Below are positions 42,559 through 54,115 of a stretch of 64,000 bases of DNA, one piece after another (the stretch's first letter is position 1; every line of letters begins with the position of its first letter). The stretch is taken from the NCBI GenBank assembly GCA_040753815.1, contig JBFMDU010000014.1:36527-100526 (forward strand), given 5' to 3'. A program made the translations under genes and the position numbers. This stretch comes from Chloroflexota bacterium. GTDB taxonomy: Bacteria > Chloroflexota > Dehalococcoidia > GIF9 > JBFMDU01. The notes below the pieces were generated by a model. It saw only the letters and a program-made list of their open reading frames with translations. It did no database searches and was not told the origin of the DNA.

Positions 42559-43107
42559 GTGATGGGTTTGGGATATTCACATGAGTCCGGTGACAAAAAC
42601 CGTAACATTGGGGCGCCCGACACGCCTTCGAAGCCCCGGAATATCATGAAAACCTCGAACACTGAAGACAGTCTGTTTATTGTCTGGAGACTATTGCGCC
42701 GTACATCAGAGATCGTAGAACGTGCTCGTAATAGAGAACTGGCAAAATATGGTATTAACGTACGCCAGTCAGCAACACTGCATCTGATATCCATGTTGGG
42801 CGAGAGGGCCACTCCAACCTGTATCGCACGACTCGAGATGCGTCAGCCCCATACTGTCTGCCACCTTATGCAAACTATGGGAAAAGCTGGCTTGATAATA
42901 AGGCGTCATGACCTTGACCGGCGCAATAAAGTCAGAGCCGTACTCACCGATAAAGGTAAGAAGGCTTACGAACTATCTAAAGCAGGTAAGTCCATCCGCC
43001 AAATTATGTCCTGTCTGACGCCCGAAGAGATACAACAGCTCATGGTGCTCCTCGAGAAAGTCTCCGAAGCCGGCAAACAGTTACTCGACGGCTCCCGCGG
43101 TAAGTAA
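42559..43107 (+). CDS. MarR-family transcriptional regulator
   Basis: wHTH core INVRQSATLHLISMLGERATPTCIARLEMRQPHTVCHLMQTMGKAGLIIRRHDLDRRNKVRAVLTDKG. The start is uncertain: GTG 42559, ATG 42562 or ATG 42646. The last gives a typical 153 aa. Confidence 0.75.
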   Translation: MMGLGYSHESGDKNRNIGAPDTPSKPRNIMKTSNTEDSLFIVWRLLRRTSEIVERARNRELAKYGINVRQSATLHLISMLGERATPTCIARLEMRQPHTVCHLMQTMGKAGLIIRRHDLDRRNKVRAVLTDKGKKAYELSKAGKSIRQIMSCLTPEEIQQLMVLLEKVSEAGKQLLDGSRGK

Positions 43108-43264: not shown

Positions 43265-44989
43265 ATGGGCGTTCAGTTAACCGATACCACACTGCGGGAT
43301 GCACATCAATCGCTAATCGCGACCAGAATGCGTACCCGGGACATTCTCTCCGTCATCGAAAAGATGGATAGGGTGGGTTTCTTCTCATTGGAGGTGTGGG
43401 GAGGTGCCACCTTTGATACCTGCATCCGCTTTCTTAACGAAGATCCCTGGGAAAGACTACGCCAGGTGCGGGATAAGGCAAAACATACCCGTCTCCAGAT
43501 GCTCCTCAGAGGCCAGAACGTGGTCGGCTACCGGCACTATGCGGACGACGTACTAAATGAGTTTATCAGATTGTCGGTCAAGAACGGGATTGATGTTTTC
43601 CGGATATTCGATGCTTTGAACGACACGCGTAATATGGAACCGTCCATCAGGATAGCCAAGAGCCGCGGTGCACATGTTCAGGGTGCCATATGCTATACCA
43701 TCAGCCCGGTACACACTGTAGAGAGCTTCGTACAGTTAGCCATTACTTTAGCGGACCTTGGCTGTGATTCTATCTGCATTAAGGATATGGCTGGCCTCAT
43801 CTCGCCACCGGCGGCGGCTGAACTCATAAAAGGGGTCAAGGCCAAAGTCAGCATTCCGGTCGATCTTCACTCACATTGTTCTAGTGGCATGGCTCCCATG
43901 AGCTACCAGGCCGCAGGCGAAGCTGGGGCAGACATCATGGATACAGCCTTCTCGGCCCTGGCATGGGGAACTTCCCAGCCACCTACCGAGAGCGTTGCGG
44001 CTGCCTTTAAAGACACACCTTATGACACCGGATATGACCTCCAACTGCTTTACGAGATAGGTGAGGAGGTGGCCGATATTACCGCTAAATACCGGGTGCT
44101 GTTTACTGCAGAGGCGACCCGGGTAAATATCAACGCGCTTATTCACCAGATTCCAGGCGGTATGCTTTCAAACTTAGTGAGCCAGCTCCGGGAGCAGAAG
44201 GCTCTGGACCGGCTTAAAGACGTCATGGAGGAAATACCTCGCGTCAGGGCTGACATGGGTTATCCCCCCTTGGTCACACCTACCAGCCAGATTGTTGGTA
44301 TCCAGGCAGTCCTGAACGTGCTCGCCGGCGGCCGTTACAAGCAGGTCTCCGGAGAGGTGAGGGACTATATGCTTGGCAAGTACGGCCGTCCTCCGGCTCC
44401 CATAAACGAGGAGATACGGAAGGTCATCATTGGCAGCGAGAAGCCACTGAATGTCCGACCGGCTGAGGTTATGCCTGTGGAACTAGGCAAGCTCAGCGAG
44501 GAAGCTAACAAACTCGGCATTATCAAAAAGGAAGAGGATCTCATTACCTACGCTCTGTATCCGCAGGTAGCGACCAAATTCCTGCGCGGGGAGCTTAAGG
44601 AAGAGTCCATCCCAACAGCAATTGAGCCGGCTAAGACCAGCGCTCCAGTCACAGTTGCCCCAATGGAGTTTGCCATTGATGTTGACGGTGAGGTCTTCAC
44701 GGTGAAAATCTCACCGGTAGGCGGCAAACCGACTACCGAGATGGAAAGGGCCAAACCAAAAGAGGCCCCTGAAGGAGCTGTAGTCGCTCCGATGCAGGGT
44801 ATGGTACTTACTGTCAAAGTAAAACCTGGAGATAAAGTTATAGAAGGTGATGTCCTCCTCATTATCGAGGCTATGAAAATGCGGAACGATGTCCGCTCAC
44901 CATTCGGCGGCCTGGTCAAAGAAGTGCTCACTCATGACGGCGAAGTGGTCGCTACCGGGGATGTTCTGATGGTAATTGATACCAAATGA
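43265..44989 (+). CDS. pycB: Pyruvate carboxylase subunit B (carboxyltransferase plus biotinyl carrier domain)
   Basis: N-terminal TDTTLRDAHQSL...LEVWGGATFD (HMGL-like/5S carboxyltransferase) and a C-terminal biotinylation motif IIEAMKM. An oxaloacetate decarboxylase alpha subunit is the alternative call. Confidence 0.8.
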   Translation: MGVQLTDTTLRDAHQSLIATRMRTRDILSVIEKMDRVGFFSLEVWGGATFDTCIRFLNEDPWERLRQVRDKAKHTRLQMLLRGQNVVGYRHYADDVLNEFIRLSVKNGIDVFRIFDALNDTRNMEPSIRIAKSRGAHVQGAICYTISPVHTVESFVQLAITLADLGCDSICIKDMAGLISPPAAAELIKGVKAKVSIPVDLHSHCSSGMAPMSYQAAGEAGADIMDTAFSALAWGTSQPPTESVAAAFKDTPYDTGYDLQLLYEIGEEVADITAKYRVLFTAEATRVNINALIHQIPGGMLSNLVSQLREQKALDRLKDVMEEIPRVRADMGYPPLVTPTSQIVGIQAVLNVLAGGRYKQVSGEVRDYMLGKYGRPPAPINEEIRKVIIGSEKPLNVRPAEVMPVELGKLSEEANKLGIIKKEEDLITYALYPQVATKFLRGELKEESIPTAIEPAKTSAPVTVAPMEFAIDVDGEVFTVKISPVGGKPTTEMERAKPKEAPEGAVVAPMQGMVLTVKVKPGDKVIEGDVLLIIEAMKMRNDVRSPFGGLVKEVLTHDGEVVATGDVLMVIDTK

Positions 44990-46467
44990 TCAGCAAAATC
45001 CTTATCTCAAACCGGGGCGAGATTGCTATTCGCATCATGCGTGCCTGCCGCGAACTCGGTATACATTCGGTGGCAGTTTATTCTGACGCTGATAAGGACG
45101 CGCTTTTCGCCAAATACGCTGACGAGGCTTTTTACCTTGGTGCGGCGCCGGCTACCGAGAGTTATCTGAATATTCCCAAAATTATCAGTATCGCTAAAGA
45201 AGCCGAAGTGGATGCTATCCACCCGGGCTACGGCTTTCTATCGGAGAATCCCGACCTCGGGTTAGCCTGTGAAAAGGAAGCTATCAAATTTATTGGTCCG
45301 CCTAGCCGTACGCTGGACCTGACCGGTAATAAAATCGCCGCCAAGATTGCCGTCGAAGCGGCCGGGGTGCCGACAGTACCTGGTACCAACGAGTCGGTTG
45401 CCGACTTCGCTCAGGCCAAACTTATAACTGAAACTGTTGGATTCCCTGTCATAATTAAGCCTGCTGGTGGCGGCGGTGGCATTGGCATGAGCATTGTGAG
45501 CAATGAAACTCAATTACAGGAAGCGCTGGACTCGTCTCGTAAGATCGCTGGTACTGCCTTTGGCTGGCCAGATGTGTATATTGAGAAGTACATACCGCAC
45601 CCCCACCACGTCGAGTTCCAGATTCTGGCCGATTCGCACGGGAATATCATCCATCTTGGCGAAAGGGAGTGCTCCATCCAGAGACGCCACCAGAAGCTGA
45701 TTGAAGAATCGCCTTCTCCTACTTTGAACGCTCGGATGCGCCGACAAATGGGCGAAGCGGCTATTGCTGCAATGAAGGCGGTCGGCTATGAAAATGCCGG
45801 CACGGTCGAGTTCATCGTGTCCAACCACAAATTCTACTTCATCGAAATAAACGCCCGTATCCAGGTCGAGCATGCCGTTACCGAAATGGTCACTGGCGTC
45901 GATATCGTTAAAGAACAGATACGCATTGCTTCAGGTGAATCCCTCAGCATTCAGCAGAAAGATATTAAGATGAGTGGTTGGGCGATCGAGTGCCGCATCA
46001 ATGCTGAAGATCCGCTGAACGGTTTCGTACCATCTCCGGGTAAGCTTAGAGGCTATCGGTCCCCGGGCGGCATCGGTGTTCGTGTGGACAGTGGCGTACA
46101 CACCCGGTACACCATCCCTCACCTCTACGACCCTATGATTTCCAAGCTCATTGTCTGGGGCCGGAATCGGGAGGAGGCTATTTTAAGGATGCGGCGCGCC
46201 CTGTACGAGTACATCGTCGTGGGTGTCAAAACCAACATACCATTCCACAAAGCAGTCATGGAAAACCCGCGATTCGTGGCTGGTGACTTTGGCACCAGCT
46301 TCGTCGACCGCGAGACTACGCTGGTGGAGGATATGCGCGCTATTGTTAGTCGTGAGGAAGCGCTTGAAGATAAGCTGTCTCAGATATTCGATGAGAAAAG
46401 GCGGGTTGCAGCGGCCGCCGCGGCGGCCATTATCGTTCAGCTTCAACAAAGCGCTCAGTCGAAGTAA
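44986..46467 (+). CDS. pycA: Biotin carboxylase (pyruvate carboxylase subunit A)
   Basis: ILISNRGEIAIRIMRAC, HPGYGFLSEN, ATP-grasp glycine-rich loop KPAGGGGGIGM, ERECSIQRRHQKLIEE, EINARIQVEH. It overlaps pycB by 4 nt (ATGA). Confidence 0.85.
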   Translation: MISKILISNRGEIAIRIMRACRELGIHSVAVYSDADKDALFAKYADEAFYLGAAPATESYLNIPKIISIAKEAEVDAIHPGYGFLSENPDLGLACEKEAIKFIGPPSRTLDLTGNKIAAKIAVEAAGVPTVPGTNESVADFAQAKLITETVGFPVIIKPAGGGGGIGMSIVSNETQLQEALDSSRKIAGTAFGWPDVYIEKYIPHPHHVEFQILADSHGNIIHLGERECSIQRRHQKLIEESPSPTLNARMRRQMGEAAIAAMKAVGYENAGTVEFIVSNHKFYFIEINARIQVEHAVTEMVTGVDIVKEQIRIASGESLSIQQKDIKMSGWAIECRINAEDPLNGFVPSPGKLRGYRSPGGIGVRVDSGVHTRYTIPHLYDPMISKLIVWGRNREEAILRMRRALYEYIVVGVKTNIPFHKAVMENPRFVAGDFGTSFVDRETTLVEDMRAIVSREEALEDKLSQIFDEKRRVAAAAAAAIIVQLQQSAQSK

Positions 46468-46484: not shown

Positions 46485-48329
46485 CTAACAGGGCTCTGGA
46501 CGTCTTGTCTCCTCATGGATACGGAAACCGTGTTTGCTCCAGACACCAGTTAACCGGCGTGCCTTGAGGAGTTTATCGGCGACGTAGCGATTGTTCCTGT
46601 TGCCAACGTAGACCCAGGCTGGTACGCGGTGGAAGCCCTCTATCATCACCTCTCTGATAACCCTGCTGAAGACCGGGTTAGGATCATTGCTTCCTTCATA
46701 GTCGTCGAACCGAGCAGCGGTTTCTTCGAAGTTGCCAAGCGTAATCACCACACCATGGACTATACCCCCGCCAAGGTCATCGATTATTACCGGAAAATCA
46801 CCAAAATCATAGGCTTCTCCGTAGGCATGTCCGCGCCGCACCTCCGTAACTATTGCGCCGAAACGGCGTTCGTTCCGCTCCGGCGACATAAGGGTACCGT
46901 ACGCAAAAATAGTCCTGGGGTTGGATACGGTGTTGACAGCCTTAGTCCAACGTTTAATCTCGGCCAGAAAAACGTACGGCGTGCCGCAATAATCTTCAGC
47001 TCTGAGATAATCCGCCACCTCGCTGAGAGGTACCTCAAGAAGGTGTTGTGTCACCACATATTCGTCTTCCTCCACCACTTCAAGCGTAATGTGATTCCAG
47101 TCAAGTTTAGTTCCGAGGTTTCTTGTCAGACGCATCGGCAATCGCCGGCTGTAAACGCTGAGCACCCGACACGGGGACTCAAGAAATTTCAGGTGAATCG
47201 TAGCAGGTTCTATGACACGATGATCCCCAAGGAAAGCCCTTACTGACTTTCCTGTCGTCGCCTCGATGAAGCCTGTATGAAGACTGAAGAATCGAGGTGT
47301 CCCATCAAAATCAACCATCGGAGACTTCTGGCCGGTCAGATAGTCCTCTATCAACGATAACGCCCCGGCTCCACCGAAACGCAATATATCGTGTGACAGT
47401 GATTCCGTATAAGCCTTCCCCATGTCCACTACTGTCATCTCGCCTTGATCAGTCCCGATCATGGCTTGAGATCCCATTTCCATTACGTTTGTTTCCTGTA
47501 ATGAGCTTACCTGGTACCCCATCACATAATTGGGACGCTGATATGCAACATCACGGATAACCACCGGAAAATGCGGCAACAACGCTCTAAAGTAGTCCGG
47601 CGACCGATATCTCTCCTGCCAATTCCGATACTTGCTCAAGTCAGCTTTGATTAGACTGGTAAAGTATTCAACTGCCGCAAACCAGAAGGCAAAGCCGGCC
47701 CGCATCTGCTCGGGTTCCGTCACGTGTGGCAGACAAAGCTCCATCCGTCGGTTCTTTCTGGGGCGATACAACGCTCCTTTACGGGGATAACGATTAAAAA
47801 GCAAGAAAGCTAGGACCGGTGCTACTGTATGCGTCGTAAGTAGGGCAATATCCGCTCCGAGTTTTTGAGCAGGAACGCTTACGAATTCGTCACTCGGCAC
47901 AGAGGCTTCGAATCGGCAAAGGTCATCACCGGCGAAAAAAGAGTCCAGTGTTAGATTAAGATGGGTGCTGACGCCAGTAATCTGGCACTCGCGACACAGC
48001 TCGAGTAACTGTGCCCGCTGGGTCAAAACACAGTCAACCAGTGTATCAACACCATCCCGTAAGAGAACAAGCGGGGTTGTAGCCTCAACGAGACTACCTG
48101 CCGCATCATAGTCGTGGTAAAGAGTGCCTCCATACCATGTCCATATCCTTCCATTCCCCTGCTCCTGCTGTAGGTCTCCTTTTATTACTGGCACATGTAC
48201 GGCTTCGTCAAAGAAAAACCGTTCTGAGCGTCGAACAAGCTCGTCTATCAGGACACCGCGGCCGTCACTGCCTACGACGCGGAACTCATCCTCTACCCCG
48301 GCAAATCTTTCGTTCCCCAGAATAGACAT
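46485..48329 (-). CDS. Fusion: GCS2-like carboxylate-amine ligase-like N-region plus gamma-glutamylcyclotransferase (GGCT/AIG2-like) C-domain
   Basis: The C-domain (about 46560-46910) reads IFAYGTLMSPE...GIVHGVV...FDDYEG...VYV, a YGTL-type GGCT pattern. The N-region has spaced strings GVEDEFRVV, LVEATTP and GVSTHLNL, reminiscent of the GCS2/YbdK ligase fold. The N-domain call is an inference. Confidence 0.55.
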   Translation of the reverse strand: MSILGNERFAGVEDEFRVVGSDGRGVLIDELVRRSERFFFDEAVHVPVIKGDLQQEQGNGRIWTWYGGTLYHDYDAAGSLVEATTPLVLLRDGVDTLVDCVLTQRAQLLELCRECQITGVSTHLNLTLDSFFAGDDLCRFEASVPSDEFVSVPAQKLGADIALLTTHTVAPVLAFLLFNRYPRKGALYRPRKNRRMELCLPHVTEPEQMRAGFAFWFAAVEYFTSLIKADLSKYRNWQERYRSPDYFRALLPHFPVVIRDVAYQRPNYVMGYQVSSLQETNVMEMGSQAMIGTDQGEMTVVDMGKAYTESLSHDILRFGGAGALSLIEDYLTGQKSPMVDFDGTPRFFSLHTGFIEATTGKSVRAFLGDHRVIEPATIHLKFLESPCRVLSVYSRRLPMRLTRNLGTKLDWNHITLEVVEEDEYVVTQHLLEVPLSEVADYLRAEDYCGTPYVFLAEIKRWTKAVNTVSNPRTIFAYGTLMSPERNERRFGAIVTEVRRGHAYGEAYDFGDFPVIIDDLGGGIVHGVVITLGNFEETAARFDDYEGSNDPNPVFSRVIREVMIEGFHRVPAWVYVGNRNNRYVADKLLKARRLTGVWSKHGFRIHEETRRPEPC

Positions 48330-48520
48330 TCTTGTTTAATATTAGCGATTCTCAGAAACTTGCGGCAAATTCTACCCCCTACGCATCCGGAATGCCAAGG
48401 TGTTCAACCCCTACTCATATCAAGCGCACCCAGGGATCCCAGATTGAATGAATGTCAGCAGTTCAGTATAATCCTTGATCTGCCAAGCGGACTTTCATCT
48501 AACTACAGAGGAGATGTACC

Positions 48521-49318
48521 ATGCCTGTCAACATTATCGTTTGTATGAAACAAGTGCTTGACCCGGAAGCTCCGGTTTCCGCGTTCAAAATAGACACTGA
48601 AGCCAAACGGGCTATTCCGGCCCAAGGCATACCACCAGTCCTTAGCCCCTTCGATGAAAATGCACTGGAAGGGGCGCTCAGGATCAAAGCCGCTAACTCC
48701 GGTAGCAAAGTTACCGTCATTTCAATGGGTAAGCAGATAGCGAAGGCTGTAGTTAGAAAATCCCTGGCTGTGGGTGCCGATGACCTTATATTGCTTGAGG
48801 ATCCGGCCTTCGATATTTTTGACCCGTACTTCACAGCCTATGTTCTAGCCGCTGCTGTTAAAAAGGTAGTTAAGTATGACCTGATCATGTGCGGCCGCCA
48901 GGCGGCGGATACCGATGCTGGACAGGTAGGCTCTGGCTTGGCCGAGCTCTTGGGGATACCATCTATCACTGTAGCTAAAAAGGTGGAGGTAACCGACGGT
49001 AAAGTCAGGGTAGAGCGGGTGCTTTCAGATGGCTACGAAACGGTTGAAGCATCACTCCCGGCTCTCATCACCGCTACTAATGAGTTAGGAGAACTGCGCT
49101 CAGCGAATGTGGCCGCAATCATGCAGGCTCAAAAGAAGCCGCTCGTGACCTGGAAGGCTCAAGACCTGGGAATTGATACTTCTAAACTCCAGCGTACAGC
49201 TTTCACCAAGCTGTTCCAACCAGTGCGTGAGGTGAAATGTCAGATGGTTGCTGGTGCAACTCTGCAAGAGGCTGGCCAAAACCTCGCCGTTAAGCTGAAA
49301 GAGGTAAAGCTAATCTAG
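48521..49318 (+). CDS. etfB: Electron transfer flavoprotein beta subunit
   Basis: MPVNIIVCMKQVLDPE..., CGRQAADTDAGQVG, ELLGIPSIT. No etfA follows; the next genes are convergent. Confidence 0.85.
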   Translation: MPVNIIVCMKQVLDPEAPVSAFKIDTEAKRAIPAQGIPPVLSPFDENALEGALRIKAANSGSKVTVISMGKQIAKAVVRKSLAVGADDLILLEDPAFDIFDPYFTAYVLAAAVKKVVKYDLIMCGRQAADTDAGQVGSGLAELLGIPSITVAKKVEVTDGKVRVERVLSDGYETVEASLPALITATNELGELRSANVAAIMQAQKKPLVTWKAQDLGIDTSKLQRTAFTKLFQPVREVKCQMVAGATLQEAGQNLAVKLKEVKLI

Positions 49319-49360: not shown

Positions 49361-50152
49361 TTACATCGGTATTTCCGGCTGAATTACCAACCTGGATATG
49401 CCCTTCTCTTCAAAGCCCTCCGGTAGGGCCGTATTCTTAAAAAAGATAGTATTCCCCTTGCGTATCAACATCACCGGCATTATCTCGCTGGTCAATCCGA
49501 AGGAATACTTACGGCATTCACGTCGGCATGGGAAGATACCAATCTGCTCCTCCATCTCTGGAACATCGCATGAAGCTGTGAGACACATCCGGGTGGTCGT
49601 CACGTAGGCATATGGTATATAGAGTGAGACTTCAAGCCCTTCTAACGGTAAATCAATTCCTTGAAGTATGTTATCCAGTTCGACACGTCTGACCCTGTGT
49701 TCCATAAGGAACTCCTGTACCAAGGGTACTGTCAGGCTGGAATTACTAAAGTATTCAATAGTAGTCTCGGGAAGACGGTCAATGACCATCATCAATCTGG
49801 GCCCACGCTTCATCTTGTTAAGCAACCGTCCCATCACCGGCACCAGATTCGGGAATCGCTGTCTCATCAGCCTGAGCACACCGTAATCGTTGAATACGAC
49901 TTCAGAACCAGGCCTCTGATTAACCACAGCATCCAACAGTGCCTCGACTCGCCTTATGCCCGCTTCGGTAACGTATGGAGTTACCAGAGCGAACCCGGCA
50001 CCATTATCACAGGCGAACTTCAATGCTGTCGCTAATTCATCAGACGTTGGAAGCAACCGCTCACAAAACTCGTTGCCAAAATACAAGCATGAAAAATTCT
50101 CCGCCCAATAATGCAGGTGGTCCGGCCTGGTAATGAATAACGCCTGTTCCAT
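49361..50152 (-). CDS. U32-family-like protein with 4-Cys cluster (partner B)
   Basis: LYFGNEFCERLLP start of a TIM-barrel-like domain and a Cys cluster MCLTASC-x13-CRREC (CX4CX13CX3C). The ATG at 50152 shares one base with the upstream stop (TGATG), implying translational coupling. The track start at 50182 is less likely. Confidence 0.6.
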   Translation of the reverse strand: MEQALFITRPDHLHYWAENFSCLYFGNEFCERLLPTSDELATALKFACDNGAGFALVTPYVTEAGIRRVEALLDAVVNQRPGSEVVFNDYGVLRLMRQRFPNLVPVMGRLLNKMKRGPRLMMVIDRLPETTIEYFSNSSLTVPLVQEFLMEHRVRRVELDNILQGIDLPLEGLEVSLYIPYAYVTTTRMCLTASCDVPEMEEQIGIFPCRRECRKYSFGLTSEIMPVMLIRKGNTIFFKNTALPEGFEEKGISRLVIQPEIPM

Positions 50153-51132
50153 CAGACTATCATCACCTCCGGGTAATAACACATGTAGACCCGGCAGGGA
50201 CGCTTGTACGTCTCCTGGTACCGCTTCCTTGCAGTAGCATAAAACTCCTGTTTTGTTGGCCCTTGAGACAGCAGGTCAAGAAGCGACCTTAAAAAACGTA
50301 TATCGGTTAACTTCCGAATACTCTGATTGCCACGGCCGACTATCTTTACACTTTTTATCCCAATCTGGTTAAAGTCCCATAGAGCACAGGCGCCGCATGG
50401 AAAATCGTCCACGTGGGCCAGTTCCCATATCCGCTGACGCTTAATTGATATGCGTGCCGCTGTGTCTTCGGCGCCATCTTCAACCGCTACCGAAACGTCG
50501 TATGGCAACATGCAAGCGTTGCGGTAAAGCAGGTCCATCGACTTGTCAGCAAGTCCGTGGTGAAAGGTACAAAACCCATCAACATTAGGACAACGAGAGT
50601 TGAAGACGAATGTCTCCAGATCGATTCCTTTCACATTCCCCACGATACTCTGGATTTCATCAATCGTAAGATGCCTGGGAAGAATGATTCTCGATGCACC
50701 CAGGTTCTGATAGAACTTGACAGCTTCGGAATTGAAGGCAGTGCCCCCGGTGCTGATCACTACTTTAGCTCTTGCCCTCATCTGACGGAGGAGTAGAAGA
50801 ATGGCAAGGTCAGCAACGATAAGCGCGTTCACACCTATGCTATCGGCTCTCTCAATGAAATTCTTGATGTATGGATACTGTTTTTCAATGTAGTAGTGCT
50901 CATTAAGTGTTAGAAAGACAGGGATAGTGTGCGAATGGGCAATGCTGACACACTCATCAAGTTGGTCGAACGTAGTGAAATTAGCACCGCCGCCGGGACG
51001 GCGGTTGATGGAGCCTGCGATGTATTGGTTGTGCCATTCCTCGGTTAGTAGGCCACAGTAAAGTTCGTCAGCGCCGGCCTGGATTAGCGGCTCTACCTCT
51101 TCAACTTTGTCGACTGGAGAAAGTAGTTTCAC
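50152..51132 (-). CDS. U32-family protein (peptidase U32 / UbiU-UbiV-RlhA-like fold) (partner A)
   Basis: MKLLSPVDKVEEVEPLIQAGADELYCG matches the U32 N-terminus, with IVADLAILLLLRQ and a Cys pattern RCPNVDGFC (CX6C) plus later C...CGAC. GTG start with an AGGGG RBS. Confidence 0.65.
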   Translation of the reverse strand: MKLLSPVDKVEEVEPLIQAGADELYCGLLTEEWHNQYIAGSINRRPGGGANFTTFDQLDECVSIAHSHTIPVFLTLNEHYYIEKQYPYIKNFIERADSIGVNALIVADLAILLLLRQMRARAKVVISTGGTAFNSEAVKFYQNLGASRIILPRHLTIDEIQSIVGNVKGIDLETFVFNSRCPNVDGFCTFHHGLADKSMDLLYRNACMLPYDVSVAVEDGAEDTAARISIKRQRIWELAHVDDFPCGACALWDFNQIGIKSVKIVGRGNQSIRKLTDIRFLRSLLDLLSQGPTKQEFYATARKRYQETYKRPCRVYMCYYPEVMIV

Positions 51133-51273: not shown

Positions 51274-52836
51274 CTACTTTGTCTTGTCGAGTGACTCCAT
51301 ATCGATAATACGGGTAGGATTGGCATGGTTACCAGGGTCCAGGTTTTTTTTAATGCTCAAGAGTAATTTCATACCTACAGGGTGTGCTGGCCAGAAGATT
51401 TTCCCGGGACCGGTTATATTAATGGTACTGATAGCCTGACCTTCTATACCAGAAGCGCTCACTTCGGTCATGCATTTTGCAAGTGTCAGATCGTTTTCGT
51501 CAGTCTTTTCCCTGGGGAAGTCAACTTCCGCCAGGGAAAAATGACCGAGGTCGTAGGGAGCTATCCAGGCCGGATGCGCACTGTCCAAAAATGGCGGCGT
51601 GTACTTGTCCAGTACTTCCCACGATGCTGGTAGGCTCCGTTCACCGTCGTCAACAGAGTCGATCGTCAGATTAACTAACGAGTAACCGCCGCCGATACGC
51701 ATCATCCGGCATCCGTTAGTGTCGCGTATCCAGTTATTAGCAGCGTAGGGGACCCACCGCTGGTAGACTTCATCTGGCACTGGAGTACCGCCAGTCTCCT
51801 TGGCGATTTGCCTCAGCACTTTCTCCTCGTACTTTACCTGTCGTGGCGACGCACAGCCCCAGAGACAAATGGCAACACAGTTCTTGACGTTCTTCAGCCA
51901 GTACTCCGAGACCCACGTGTCCCAATATTCCTCACGCGACTTCGCCCACCACCAGTCGTAATAGCCAGGCGGCCATATATGAACCACTGCACCTATCTCA
52001 CAATGTGAAATTTCATAGATAGCATCAATAGCTTGATGCATGGTCGGGTAGGATAAAAGACACCATTTGAACCTATCAGCAGGTAGTTCGCACTTCTTTT
52101 TTGGGGCAATCCCTTCTGTCGGCAATACATCTGGGCCAGGCCATGGGAACAGCTTGATAGCTAGTTTAGTGACAATCCCTAGAGTGCCGATGCTACCAAC
52201 AACCCCTCTCAATATTGCTCTGGCATCTGGACCCGGCCCCTCGCCCCAGGAGTAATTGTTTCCTGAGAGGGCCAGAGAGCCCGTCCGCAAAATATCGCCG
52301 GTAGGCAGAACCCATTCAACCCCAAGGATGTTTCTGGCGGCAAACCCGCTTCGATATGCTGTACCTTGTTGACCAAAAGCAATATGATTGGCCAAACTGC
52401 AAGATTGCGCGCCGGCTTCCGGGGTTCCATTGACCAATCCGGTCTTCATCGCCTCCACCGATACCTGAGCATGGGTCACATAGGGCTCGATCAGCGCATA
52501 CATATTGCGCTGGTCAATCACGAGCCGGTTCATGCGCTTGGTATCGATAATTACCCAGTATGGTTTGACCGCTGCGGTTATACCAAAGGCAAGGCCCGAC
52601 CCCACTACTGAATACGGGAACCCAAGTCGGTTCGCCAGACGAATAATCTCCTGGACATCACCGGTACTGCATGGCATAGCAATGAACGCAGCACGCCGCC
52701 GTGTAGCGACGCTTGGCGCCTGGGATTCACGGCTATATGACTCGAGCACTAACGGATCATCACAGACATATTCATGCCCCAGAATATCAACCAGACGGTT
52801 ACGAATTAGACTGTGTTTCTCGTCACCGAGTGGCAT
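51274..52836 (-). CDS. FAD-binding oxidoreductase (PCMH-type, GlcD / D-lactate dehydrogenase / VAO family)
   Basis: FAD-binding-4-like N-domain ([28 protein letters not shown]...[45 protein letters not shown]). Confidence 0.75.
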
Positions 52837-52855: not shown

Positions 52856-54115
52856 CTAGAGCGCATTTTGCACCATTTGCGCTAAATCAAGTACCTGAAG
52901 GTGAGAGCCATGGCTTGCCACCGCATCAATAAAATTCCACTCGCACCAGGGACAAGCCGAGACCAGTACCTCAGCACCGGTTGACTCCGCTTCTTCTACC
53001 CTGTCTGCTGCGGAGAACTTATTGAAGTCCGGATAGGCTTCGTATACACCGCCACCAGCTCCGCAACACCAGGCATACTCCTTGATACGTTCCATTTCAA
53101 CCAGTCGAACACCCGGAATACTCCTGATAATGTTCCGCGGTTCTTCATAGAGTCCAACAATCGGTTCTCCTGGCACGTAGACTGGCAGACGTCGACCGAT
53201 GTGACAGGGGTCATGATAGGTGACTGTAACCGGCATCTTCCTGCTTGGCTTAAGGCGGCCGTCCTTCAGGGCAGCGTCGATGAATTCCACCATGTGTAGG
53301 ACCTCTAGTTTCAACCCGTACTCAGGATACAGCCGTTTGAAAGCATAATATCCGTCGGAACATGCGGTCACCACAGTCTTGACACCGGCGTTCTTCCACG
53401 CCTGGATATTATGCTCGGCAAACTTGGCAAGCTCTCCTTTATAACCCATCTCGTAGACACGGCCGCCACAGCAGGTCTCGTCCTGCCCCATAATACCCAC
53501 ATCCACCCCGGCCCTCTGCATTAACTGGACTGCACTATGCAGTGAAGGCCATAATACTGAATCAAAACTCGCCCGACAACCAGCATGGAAAACCACTTCA
53601 GCCTTCTCTTGTGTCAGGTCCTTTAGCCCAAGGCCCTCAGCCCACCTGCTTCTTTCGGCCTTAGGTTTCATCATTATGTTATCTTCCTTGCGTAGATGGT
53701 TGATGACCGGTATCAAGGCTGGATGAAGCTGGCCATCTCCTACCAGTTTAAGCCGCATCTCCTGGATAACCCGTAGCGGCTCCATGTCCTGCACACGCTT
53801 GCACATGGCATCACAGCCGCCGCAGAAATTGCATCGATAGAAGACGTCAAGGAGCATAGGAGAATCGTCGTACTTAAGCCGCCCATCAATTAAGGCTAGC
53901 GATACGTCCATTCGCCCCTGGCAGGAGAAGGCATCGTATAAGTAGTACTGGCTTGAAGGACAAATCTTAGCAAAGCGCCAGCTTTTGACCTCCCAGGAAT
54001 CCACCCATTTGCAGTTCGAGCATCTGGAGCAATTCCAGGCATTCTTGCGAAGGTCCCAGTAGTACTTTAGGTGCCAGTCATCTTTAGGCAGGCACTTACC
54101 GTTAACCATTACCAT
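52856..54115 (-). CDS. HdrD/GlcF-like Fe-S protein with two CCG domains
   Basis: Two ferredoxin-like Cys groups (CSRCSNCKW..CP; CNFCGGCDAMC) and two CCG motifs (ETCCGG, AWCCGAGGG). Confidence 0.8.
   Translation of the reverse strand: MVMVNGKCLPKDDWHLKYYWDLRKNAWNCSRCSNCKWVDSWEVKSWRFAKICPSSQYYLYDAFSCQGRMDVSLALIDGRLKYDDSPMLLDVFYRCNFCGGCDAMCKRVQDMEPLRVIQEMRLKLVGDGQLHPALIPVINHLRKEDNIMMKPKAERSRWAEGLGLKDLTQEKAEVVFHAGCRASFDSVLWPSLHSAVQLMQRAGVDVGIMGQDETCCGGRVYEMGYKGELAKFAEHNIQAWKNAGVKTVVTACSDGYYAFKRLYPEYGLKLEVLHMVEFIDAALKDGRLKPSRKMPVTVTYHDPCHIGRRLPVYVPGEPIVGLYEEPRNIIRSIPGVRLVEMERIKEYAWCCGAGGGVYEAYPDFNKFSAADRVEEAESTGAEVLVSACPWCEWNFIDAVASHGSHLQVLDLAQMVQNAL

Follow-up and report, generated by a model that had tools for sequence, protein, structure and literature searches.

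A predicted carboxylate-amine ligase module of an unrecognised family, fused to a GGACT cyclotransferase in Dehalococcoidia

What does a protein do whose C-terminal part is a recognisable cyclotransferase and whose first 470 residues resemble, by annotation, nothing at all? The question is raised by a 614-aa open reading frame (ORF; P0001) on the minus strand, at 46485..48329, of a 64,000-nt stretch of a Chloroflexota genome of the class Dehalococcoidia (contig JBFMDU010000014.1, positions 36527-100526; here called the window). The genome amounts to 1.99 Mb and is 89.7% complete. A reading of the letters alone, here called the original prediction, had proposed that the ORF fuses a ligase-like region of the GCS2 type to a gamma-glutamylcyclotransferase domain. 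The answer that we favour, at a probability of roughly 0.4, is that the N-terminal module (N-module) would gamma-glutamylate some amine at the expense of ATP, and that the C-terminal GGACT domain would remove the group again as 5-oxoproline. The evidence for the two domains is given first, followed by the mechanism and by other readings where the evidence touches them.

The ORF begins with ATG at 48329 and runs without internal stops to the stop codon at 46485-46487, which is included in the coordinates above; it is intact, and its strand and limits are exactly those first proposed. All of the motifs quoted at that time are present in the translation, namely GVEDEF (residues 11-16), LVEATTP (80-86) and GVSTHLNL (119-126) in the N-terminal region, and IFAYGTLMSPE (474-484), VHGVV (523-527), DDYEG (542-546) and VYV (573-575) in the C-terminal one. 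From 5.8 billion proteins searched, about 20 full-length homologs were recovered, 604-627 aa long and 49-82% identical; those with a name are from metagenome-assembled genomes of Dehalococcoidia and are labelled either 'hypothetical' or 'gamma-glutamylcyclotransferase family'. In the alignment of the full-length homologs the mean column identity is 68%, and each half contains dense blocks of invariant positions. Since about 20 full-length homologs are conserved to this degree, the ORF is a real conserved gene, and both of its domains are under strong joint constraint.

An exhaustive phmmer scan over 1.84 billion representative proteins added one full-length member at 37% identity (P0023), many ordinary single-domain GGACT proteins, and a set of homologs corresponding to the N-terminal 430-480 aa only (P0027, P0028, P0029, P0031, P0041 and P0123). 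These stand-alone N-modules have no GGACT domain and no Pfam match, a Pfam search of them giving nothing meaningful. They lie on contigs bearing the archaeal markers eIF-1A, aS21 and EF-1beta, one of which is named Woesearchaeota; the contigs are DPANN-type archaeal. Searching with a profile of the N-module only gave the same member set plus one distant 703-aa protein, P0175, for which HHalign against the family profile returned a probability of 98.2%; P0175 and P0029, both stand-alone N-modules, are 25% identical to each other. Of 301 genomes sampled from the window's class, only 4 have the N-module, each of a different family. Current annotation resources do not recognise the N-module family.

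The C-terminal domain spans residues 473-590 (46560..46913; minus strand, as are all features of the protein given below). Pfam GGACT (PF06094) matches residues 474-578 with E = 2.1e-12, at 48.1 bits against a cutoff of 22.8, and matches all 18 family members. A profile made from the family's C-terminal domain found, among PDB sequences, YkqA (2qik, 1.5e-7), YtfP (1xhs, 3.7e-6) and mouse GGACT (1vkb/2kl2, 1.6e-4); At5g39720 and human GGACT were matched more weakly, and the solved AIG2/GGACT structures 2g0q and 3jub were also among the matches. The backbone of the N-terminal Y-G-T/S-L motif of GGACT binds the gamma-glutamyl substrate. Here that motif is F475-A-Y477-G478-T479-L480 (46890..46907), aligned to Y7-G8-T9-L10 of mouse GGACT; G478, T479 and L480 are invariant, and position 477 is Tyr in 17 of the 18 members. 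The catalytic Glu is borne by D542-D-Y544-E545-G546 (46692..46706), where E545 (in FDDYEG) pairs with Glu82 (in LDDFEDC) of the mouse enzyme and where D542, Y544, E545 and G546 are invariant in 18/18. F554 and Y574 pair with mouse Y88 and Y115. The catalytic-site residues of mouse GGACT include Y7-G8-T9-L10, Y88 and Y115, with Glu82 catalytic, as it is in human GGACT (PMC2954230), and its substrates, according to Oakley 2010 as cited in the same paper, are gamma-glutamyl-amines. Judged by these residues, 473-590 is a GGACT cyclotransferase with an intact catalytic site, predicted to release 5-oxoproline. The GGCT/AIG2 domain of the original prediction is thereby confirmed, with both the catalytic Glu and the YGxL pocket in place. 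The window genome has two GGACT-domain genes, the fusion and a 133-aa stand-alone one (C18:65588-65989; L035:1495-1896) whose neighbours are uninformative.

The N-module (residues 1-470; 46920..48329) was described at the outset as having no obvious family, and sequence searches agree. At E <= 10 it has no Pfam or NCBIfam match, NCBIfam has no match anywhere in P0001, and comparison with PDB sequences, by phmmer and by profile hmmsearch, gave only chance matches (Sam37 and bS16m). We modelled the protein with AlphaFold2 and searched 350,542 PDB chains with Foldseek. For the full-length model, whose predicted local distance difference test score (pLDDT) is 76.8, the top matches are Dop (7oxy, 7oyh, 4b0r and 7oxv) and PafA (4bjr), with E-values of 1e-5 to 1e-4 and probability 1.0, followed by plant glutamate-cysteine ligase (2gwc, E = 0.08), GshA (3nzt, ~0.1) and then glutamine synthetases. 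A domain-only model, built from a deeper alignment that included stand-alone members, reached pLDDT 87.7 and a predicted template modelling score (pTM) of 0.89; its best match is PafA-Pup (4bjr, E = 9.5e-8, probability 1.0, TM-scores 0.42/0.40), followed by GshA (3nzt, E = 0.026) and a glutamine synthetase series at 0.3-1.9. The specific matches of both models are all members of the superfamily of carboxylate-amine ligases, so that for residues 1-470 Foldseek found ligase folds and not a region unrelated to glutamine synthetase (GS) and GCS ligases. According to these models the N-module belongs to the ATP-dependent carboxylate-amine ligase (glutamine-synthetase-like) fold, as a highly divergent orphan family that is closest to PafA/Dop, not to GCS2/YbdK. 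The GCS2-like ligase region of the original prediction survives only in part: its superfamily fold is recovered in the predicted models, and the spaced acidic and His motifs singled out there are indeed the conserved ones, but for GCS2/YbdK itself PF04107 goes unmatched, HHalign gives P = 0.026, and structure ranks PafA/Dop far ahead.

Formal membership in known families was tried and rejected. None of 18 members matches GCS2 (PF04107) or Pup_ligase (PF03136) at E <= 10, and a link to Amidoligase_2 (PF12224) and the phage amidoligase cassettes fell for want both of a profile match and of any relative of the N-module in the viral structure library BFVD at E <= 0.001. The window's own genome has no PF04107 gene at E <= 1e-10, and GCS2 is nearly absent from its class (1 of 101 genomes). 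An analogy of residues 38-69 to the 'Dop-loop' was also dropped: low confidence is confined in the better model to residues 52-58, and the spacing between beta1 and beta2 is nearer that of PafA.

Conservation was counted across 14 N-module sequences, fused and stand-alone, down to 23% identity; correspondences of motifs to other families beyond residues 7-86 rest on low-confidence alignments and inspection by eye. Eleven positions are invariant in 14/14 (G11, E13, E15, W63, G67, G68, Y71, E82, E197, Q208 and W411), position 73 is always Asp or Glu, R189 and R195 are kept in 13 of the 14 and R191 in 12. The collinear set E13-x-E15, Y71-x-D/E73, E82, H/Q123, R189, R191, R195 and E197 is common to members at 23-35% identity. 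The first strand, G11-V-E13-D-E15-F-R17 (48279..48299), carries the E-x-E that supplies putative Mg/ATP ligands, and GVE13DE15F aligns to GIETEY of PafA/Dop and GIEEEF of GCS2. A loop and strand with the putative catalytic acid/base follow, W63-T-W-Y-G67-G68-T-L-Y71-H-D73-Y-D75 (48105..48143), in which GGTLY71HD73 aligns to NGARFYND of Dop, in an alignment that is itself not statistically significant; the GCS2 alignment has a gap at this Y71-x-D73 loop. In A. cellulolyticus Dop the NGARFYND segment holds R90, Y92 and D94, of which D94 is the catalytic Asp (PMC8599861). The second conserved Glu strand, L80-V-E82-A-T-T85-P86 (48072..48092; E82 invariant, T85 in 13/14), aligns through VE82ATTP to PEYCTD of PafA/Dop and VEVGTE of GCS2.

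Further along, the His strand S121-T-H123-L-N125-L (47952..47969) has Asn at 125 in 12/14 and either His (10/14) or Gln (4/14) at 123; in relaxed, low-confidence alignments STH123LN falls on GCHENY of PafA/Dop and on GLHVHVG of GCS2. Candidate phosphate-binding arginines and the last conserved Glu strand lie together in Y188-R189-P-R191-K-N-R-R195-M-E197-L-C199-L-P201 (47727..47768). By eye, RRME197LCLP resembles both RRLHVIxGD of PafA/Dop, with Glu for His, and the EFRVCD strand of GCS2. Set against the GCS2 motifs E-x-E, E, H-x-H and E-x-R, the N-module offers E13-x-E15, E82, H123 and E197 in the same order, with only one His, and with C199 in place of the Arg of the GS/GCS2 E-x-R motif. W411, in the C-terminal subdomain, aligns in relaxed alignments to an invariant Trp of PafA/Dop.

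Might the N-module be a non-enzymatic substrate-binding or regulatory scaffold, of ligase-fold descent, that delivers a target to the GGACT domain? This would account for the lack of significant sequence similarity to any characterised enzyme, for the loss of one PafA/Dop metal ligand and for C199 where GS/GCS2 have Arg. The residues kept across 23-35% identity are nonetheless of active-site type (E13, E15, D/E73, E82, R189, R195 and E197), and the overall conservation is what a functional Mg-ATP active site would be expected to show, which argues against a dead scaffold. The stand-alone versions without GGACT must moreover function by themselves. We regard a scaffold as improbable.

Comparison with the two nearest groups shows an N-module of mixed features. 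PafA/Dop (PF03136; PDB 4bjr, 4b0t, 7oxy, 7oyh and 4b0r), the best structural matches, resemble it in size and in two-part layout, having a beta-sheet cradle of ~400 aa and a small C-terminal domain (PMC3511204), where the N-module is predicted to have a beta-sheet-cradle core (~1-385) and a small subdomain with the invariant W411 (~386-470). In relaxed alignments they appear to share with it the E-x-E first strand, a G-x-x-Y-x-D loop, which in PafA/Dop carries the catalytic Asp, and the Trp of the C-terminal subdomain, and they act on a gamma-glutamyl-amine (isopeptide) bond. In these alignments the Y71-x-D73 loop and the W411-bearing subdomain have putative counterparts only in PafA/Dop, not in GCS2. 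PafA/Dop differ in having His (RRLHV) where the N-module has E197 and in the HENY Glu, which is replaced by Leu or Tyr; the N-module is also fused to GGACT, which needs a free alpha-amine on the glutamyl group. GCS2/YbdK, GshA and glutamine synthetase (2gwc, 3nzt and 2d3a) are of the same predicted fold class and form a second tier of Foldseek matches (E 0.03-0.5). Their E-x-E, E, H and Arg/Glu-strand motifs are collinear with those of the N-module, whose E197 is like the Glu of the EFR motif, and the free glutamate that GCS2, GshA and GS use is what a downstream GGACT would need; in contrast, the extra C-terminal subdomain, the Y-x-D loop and C199 for Arg set the N-module apart from them. The N-module seems to form a lone branch within the fold behind glutamine synthetase, glutamate-cysteine ligase and PafA/Dop, mixing a PafA/Dop-type Y-x-D loop and C-terminal subdomain with a GS/GCS2-type Glu on the last metal-binding strand, and is therefore informative on the origin of the pupylation enzymes.

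Likeness to Dop opens the possibility that both domains are catabolic: the N-module would be an amidase or isopeptidase working in the Dop direction, dependent on ATP or ADP-Pi, on gamma-glutamyl or glutamine-type amides, with GGACT taking the gamma-glutamyl-amine fragments. Dop chains are the top matches of the full-length model, the conserved acidic position 73 matches the water-activating Asp of Dop, and Dop and PafA share a fold with subtle differences only (PMC8599861, PMC3511204). The better, domain-only model has PafA and not Dop as its top match, however, the genome is without Pup, a second domain that cleaves the same type of bond would be superfluous, and there are no conserved peptidase partners. 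We hold a purely catabolic protein to be quite unlikely.

We return to the reading in which the N-module installs a gamma-glutamyl group and GGACT removes it, for which we infer chemistry, substrate and the direction in which the N-module would work as follows. With Mg-ATP, the N-module would convert the gamma-carboxylate of free L-glutamate into an acyl phosphate. With D73 as the base, the activated glutamyl group would pass to an amine, be it a small molecule, the head group of a lipid or the side chain of a lysine. Later, in the GGACT domain, the free alpha-amine of the gamma-glutamyl group would attack, yielding 5-oxoproline and the amine. Free glutamate must be the donor if both domains act on the same molecule, because GGACT needs a free alpha-amine and the C-terminal Glu of Pup has none. 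The protein would thus be a self-contained unit for installing and removing a transient gamma-glutamyl tag, with the logic of PuuA/PuuD and BtrJ/BtrG, and a single soluble polypeptide with both predicted activities makes a convenient entry point.

In its favour, both domains would act on the same bond type. A mechanism like that of BtrJ/BtrG is plausible by analogy, as the Puu pair (gamma-glutamyl-putrescine pathway) and the Btr pair (gamma-glutamyl protecting group of butirosin) follow the proposed logic of ATP-dependent gamma-glutamylation of an amine and later removal. The butirosin remover, BtrG, is a GGCT-fold cyclotransferase. The correspondence is not complete: BtrJ belongs to the ATP-grasp enzymes, PuuD to the GATase-type hydrolases, and the Puu and Btr operons or clusters encode the intermediate steps, whereas the fusion gene has no such linked genes.

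A precedent for the pairing itself comes from Firmicutes, where a carboxylate-amine ligase family (for example C. perfringens CJD_1902) adjoins, in conserved neighbourhoods, an Aig2 cyclotransferase or, alternatively, a GATase-like peptidase (PMC2588565). This either/or pattern argues that the partner serves to cleave the product of the ligase. The pairing of a GS-fold ligase with Aig2 was predicted computationally, and we compare it by description: as in the fusion contexts no Pup-like small ORF lies nearby, but ligase and cyclotransferase are separate genes there and one polypeptide here (PMC2588565). By analogy, the fusion protein would work like the pairing of GS-fold amidoligase and cyclotransferase already predicted in 2008, and covalent joining to GGACT would be the strongest form of that association. 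The statement that this architecture had not been described holds for the fused form, on which we found no paper, but not for neighbourhoods of ligase and Aig2, which were reported by Iyer et al. 2008 (PMC2588565).

Several points weigh against installation and removal by one protein. The TM-scores are only ~0.4, on predicted models, and denote a distant relationship. HHalign comparisons with alignments of the PafA/Dop genes and of the GCS2 genes of the window's phylum were not significant, whether for PafA/Dop (P = 0.029-0.063, probability <2%) or for GCS2 (P = 0.026, probability 1.9%); the results are marginal and indistinguishable, so sequence cannot decide between the two. In the N-module, Leu or Tyr stands in for one of the canonical metal-binding Glu residues of PafA/Dop (that of HENY), and in a distant clade H123 gives way to Gln. 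The ligase family of the 2008 precedent (PMC2588565) is a different one. Chemistry of the PafA/Dop kind could just as well proceed hydrolytically, as in Dop. In the homolog contexts we found no conserved neighbour enzyme able to act on a gamma-glutamylated intermediate; with no linked gene acting on the tagged intermediate, the protein would be a futile ATPase unless the partners are unlinked or the tag is regulatory. Lastly, gene fusions more often join consecutive than opposing steps.

That last point speaks for a consecutive salvage, in which GGACT would free 5-oxoproline from a gamma-glutamyl-amine and the N-module would use ATP to reopen the 5-oxoproline to glutamate. The N-module would then phosphorylate the lactam oxygen, as Dop does the Gln amide oxygen of Pup, and would be a third, so far unrecognised type of 5-oxoprolinase. 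The mechanism of Dop includes a step in which ATP phosphorylates the oxygen of an amide or carboxylate and a later hydrolysis assisted by D94 (PMC8599861), and Y71-x-D73 aligns to Y92-x-D94 of Dop. Genome content points the same way: the window genome has its two GGACT genes yet neither PxpA/LamB_YcsF nor Hydantoinase_B, and the other three fusion-bearing genomes have neither PxpA nor Hydantoinase_B above cutoff. In the window's class, Hydantoinase_B is present in 81 of 151 genomes and PxpA in 17 of 151; by the union of the genomes listed for the two, ~57% have at least one known 5-oxoprolinase type, against none of the four carriers (naive chance ~0.03). A metabolite-repair enzyme would also suit the minimal DPANN-type genomes in which stand-alone N-modules are found.

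The comparison stands on only four genomes, however, two of them ~70% complete; Hydantoinase_B also includes enzymes other than 5-oxoprolinases; and the ~43% of class genomes without either known type are without the fusion gene as well. The GATase-like peptidase that serves as the other partner in the 2008 precedent would presumably yield glutamate and not 5-oxoproline, which suits a partner that cleaves what the ligase makes better than it suits salvage. We know of no 5-oxoprolinase of the GS fold. Taken together these points leave salvage unlikely, though the chief rival; if it were true, a third 5-oxoprolinase type would be relevant to the many genomes without both known ones.

Structural likeness to PafA also raises the matter of pupylation. 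We found neither Pup_ligase (PafA/Dop, PF03136) nor Pup (PF05639) in the window genome, in a search in which the C. glutamicum control registered, and no conserved small Pup-like ORF beside the fusion gene or its homologs in any context. A Pup system in the window organism was rejected on the absence of Pup, PafA and Dop, proteasome and Mpa genes not having been searched. The N-module might still be the writer, and GGACT the eraser, of an N-epsilon-(gamma-glutamyl) mark placed on protein lysines with free glutamate, all on one polypeptide: a PafA-like open-cradle ligase would attach Glu to the lysines, and GGACT, for which epsilon-(gamma-glutamyl)-lysine is the canonical substrate, would take it off again as 5-oxoproline. 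We consider this highly improbable. If true, Dehalococcoidia would have a minimal relative of pupylation that needs no Pup, and DPANN archaea would have 'writers' that stand alone.

Elsewhere in the phylum, 30 of 301 sampled genomes have canonical pairs of PafA and Dop, and the window's class is not represented among the 30. Tandem Pup_ligase pairs (~500 aa each, 0.5 kb apart; loci L009-L020 and L025-L029; genomes G010, G023, G035, G238, G294 and others) are concentrated in three families (f28, f35 and f50). These suggest pupylation machinery in the window's phylum.

The surroundings of the homologs vary. No partner gene is common to the six fused and six stand-alone contexts compared. Adjacency to pycAB occurs only in close relatives (L001, L002 and L004), and distant fused homologs adjoin unrelated genes: MerR with HATPase, radical SAM, an acetyltransferase with ATP-grasp, and an old-yellow-enzyme-type gene. 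A 200-aa gene adjoining P0173 was checked as a possible hidden GGACT and is not one. We note some local associations: (i) A CDP-alcohol phosphatidyltransferase gene (PF01066) directly adjoins the divergent stand-alone N-modules P0029 (L030:8422-8955, plus strand; also L031:1816-2349) and P0175 (L054:77-679, minus strand). The two transferases are only ~25% identical, so the adjacency is not recent synteny; it may be a hint that the substrate is a lipid head group bearing an amine. (ii) A string of DnaJ, ThiF (E1-like), an 85-aa ORF and UQ_con (E2-like) (L004:552-2694) lies some 2 kb upstream of the gene for the fused P0006 and resembles an operon for ubiquitin-like conjugation in bacteria; since the other contexts do not have it, a relation to the fusion gene is improbable. 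(iii) A DUF4349 gene (PF14257) lies immediately downstream of the fused P0009 (L006:3844-4686, L007:3747-4589), and the gene for the stand-alone archaeal P0027 has another 5 kb downstream of it (L032:12091-13011). This proximity may be coincidence.

In the window, the fusion gene is convergent with a pycA-like biotin carboxylase gene (44986-46467, plus strand), with 17 nt between the stop codons and with a pycB-like carboxyltransferase gene further upstream, and is divergent from an etfB-like ETF-domain gene (48521-49318, plus strand) at a spacing of 191 nt, a layout that matches the one first proposed. A promoter-like site, TTGGCA-18-TAGAAT (48369..48398, minus strand), lies ~40 nt upstream of the ATG and has 10 of 12 consensus matches; three such sites occur where shuffled sequence would be expected to give 1.7, and as a consensus match only the site is weak evidence.

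Beyond etfB, a peptidase U32 family gene (50152-51132, minus strand) overlaps by 31 nt a 273-aa ORF (49361-50182, minus strand) that has no Pfam match, and the two could be a two-subunit pair of U32 type. Adjoining them are genes for a FAD_binding_4 oxidase (51274-52836) and a CCG-domain Fe-S protein (52856-54115). On the other side, between a DctM-type TRAP transporter gene and pycB, is a 182-aa ORF (42559-43107, plus strand) with no Pfam match at E <= 1e-5. The syntenic contig L001 has a 104-aa gene in its place, and the ORF may code for a small regulator whose start was called too far upstream.

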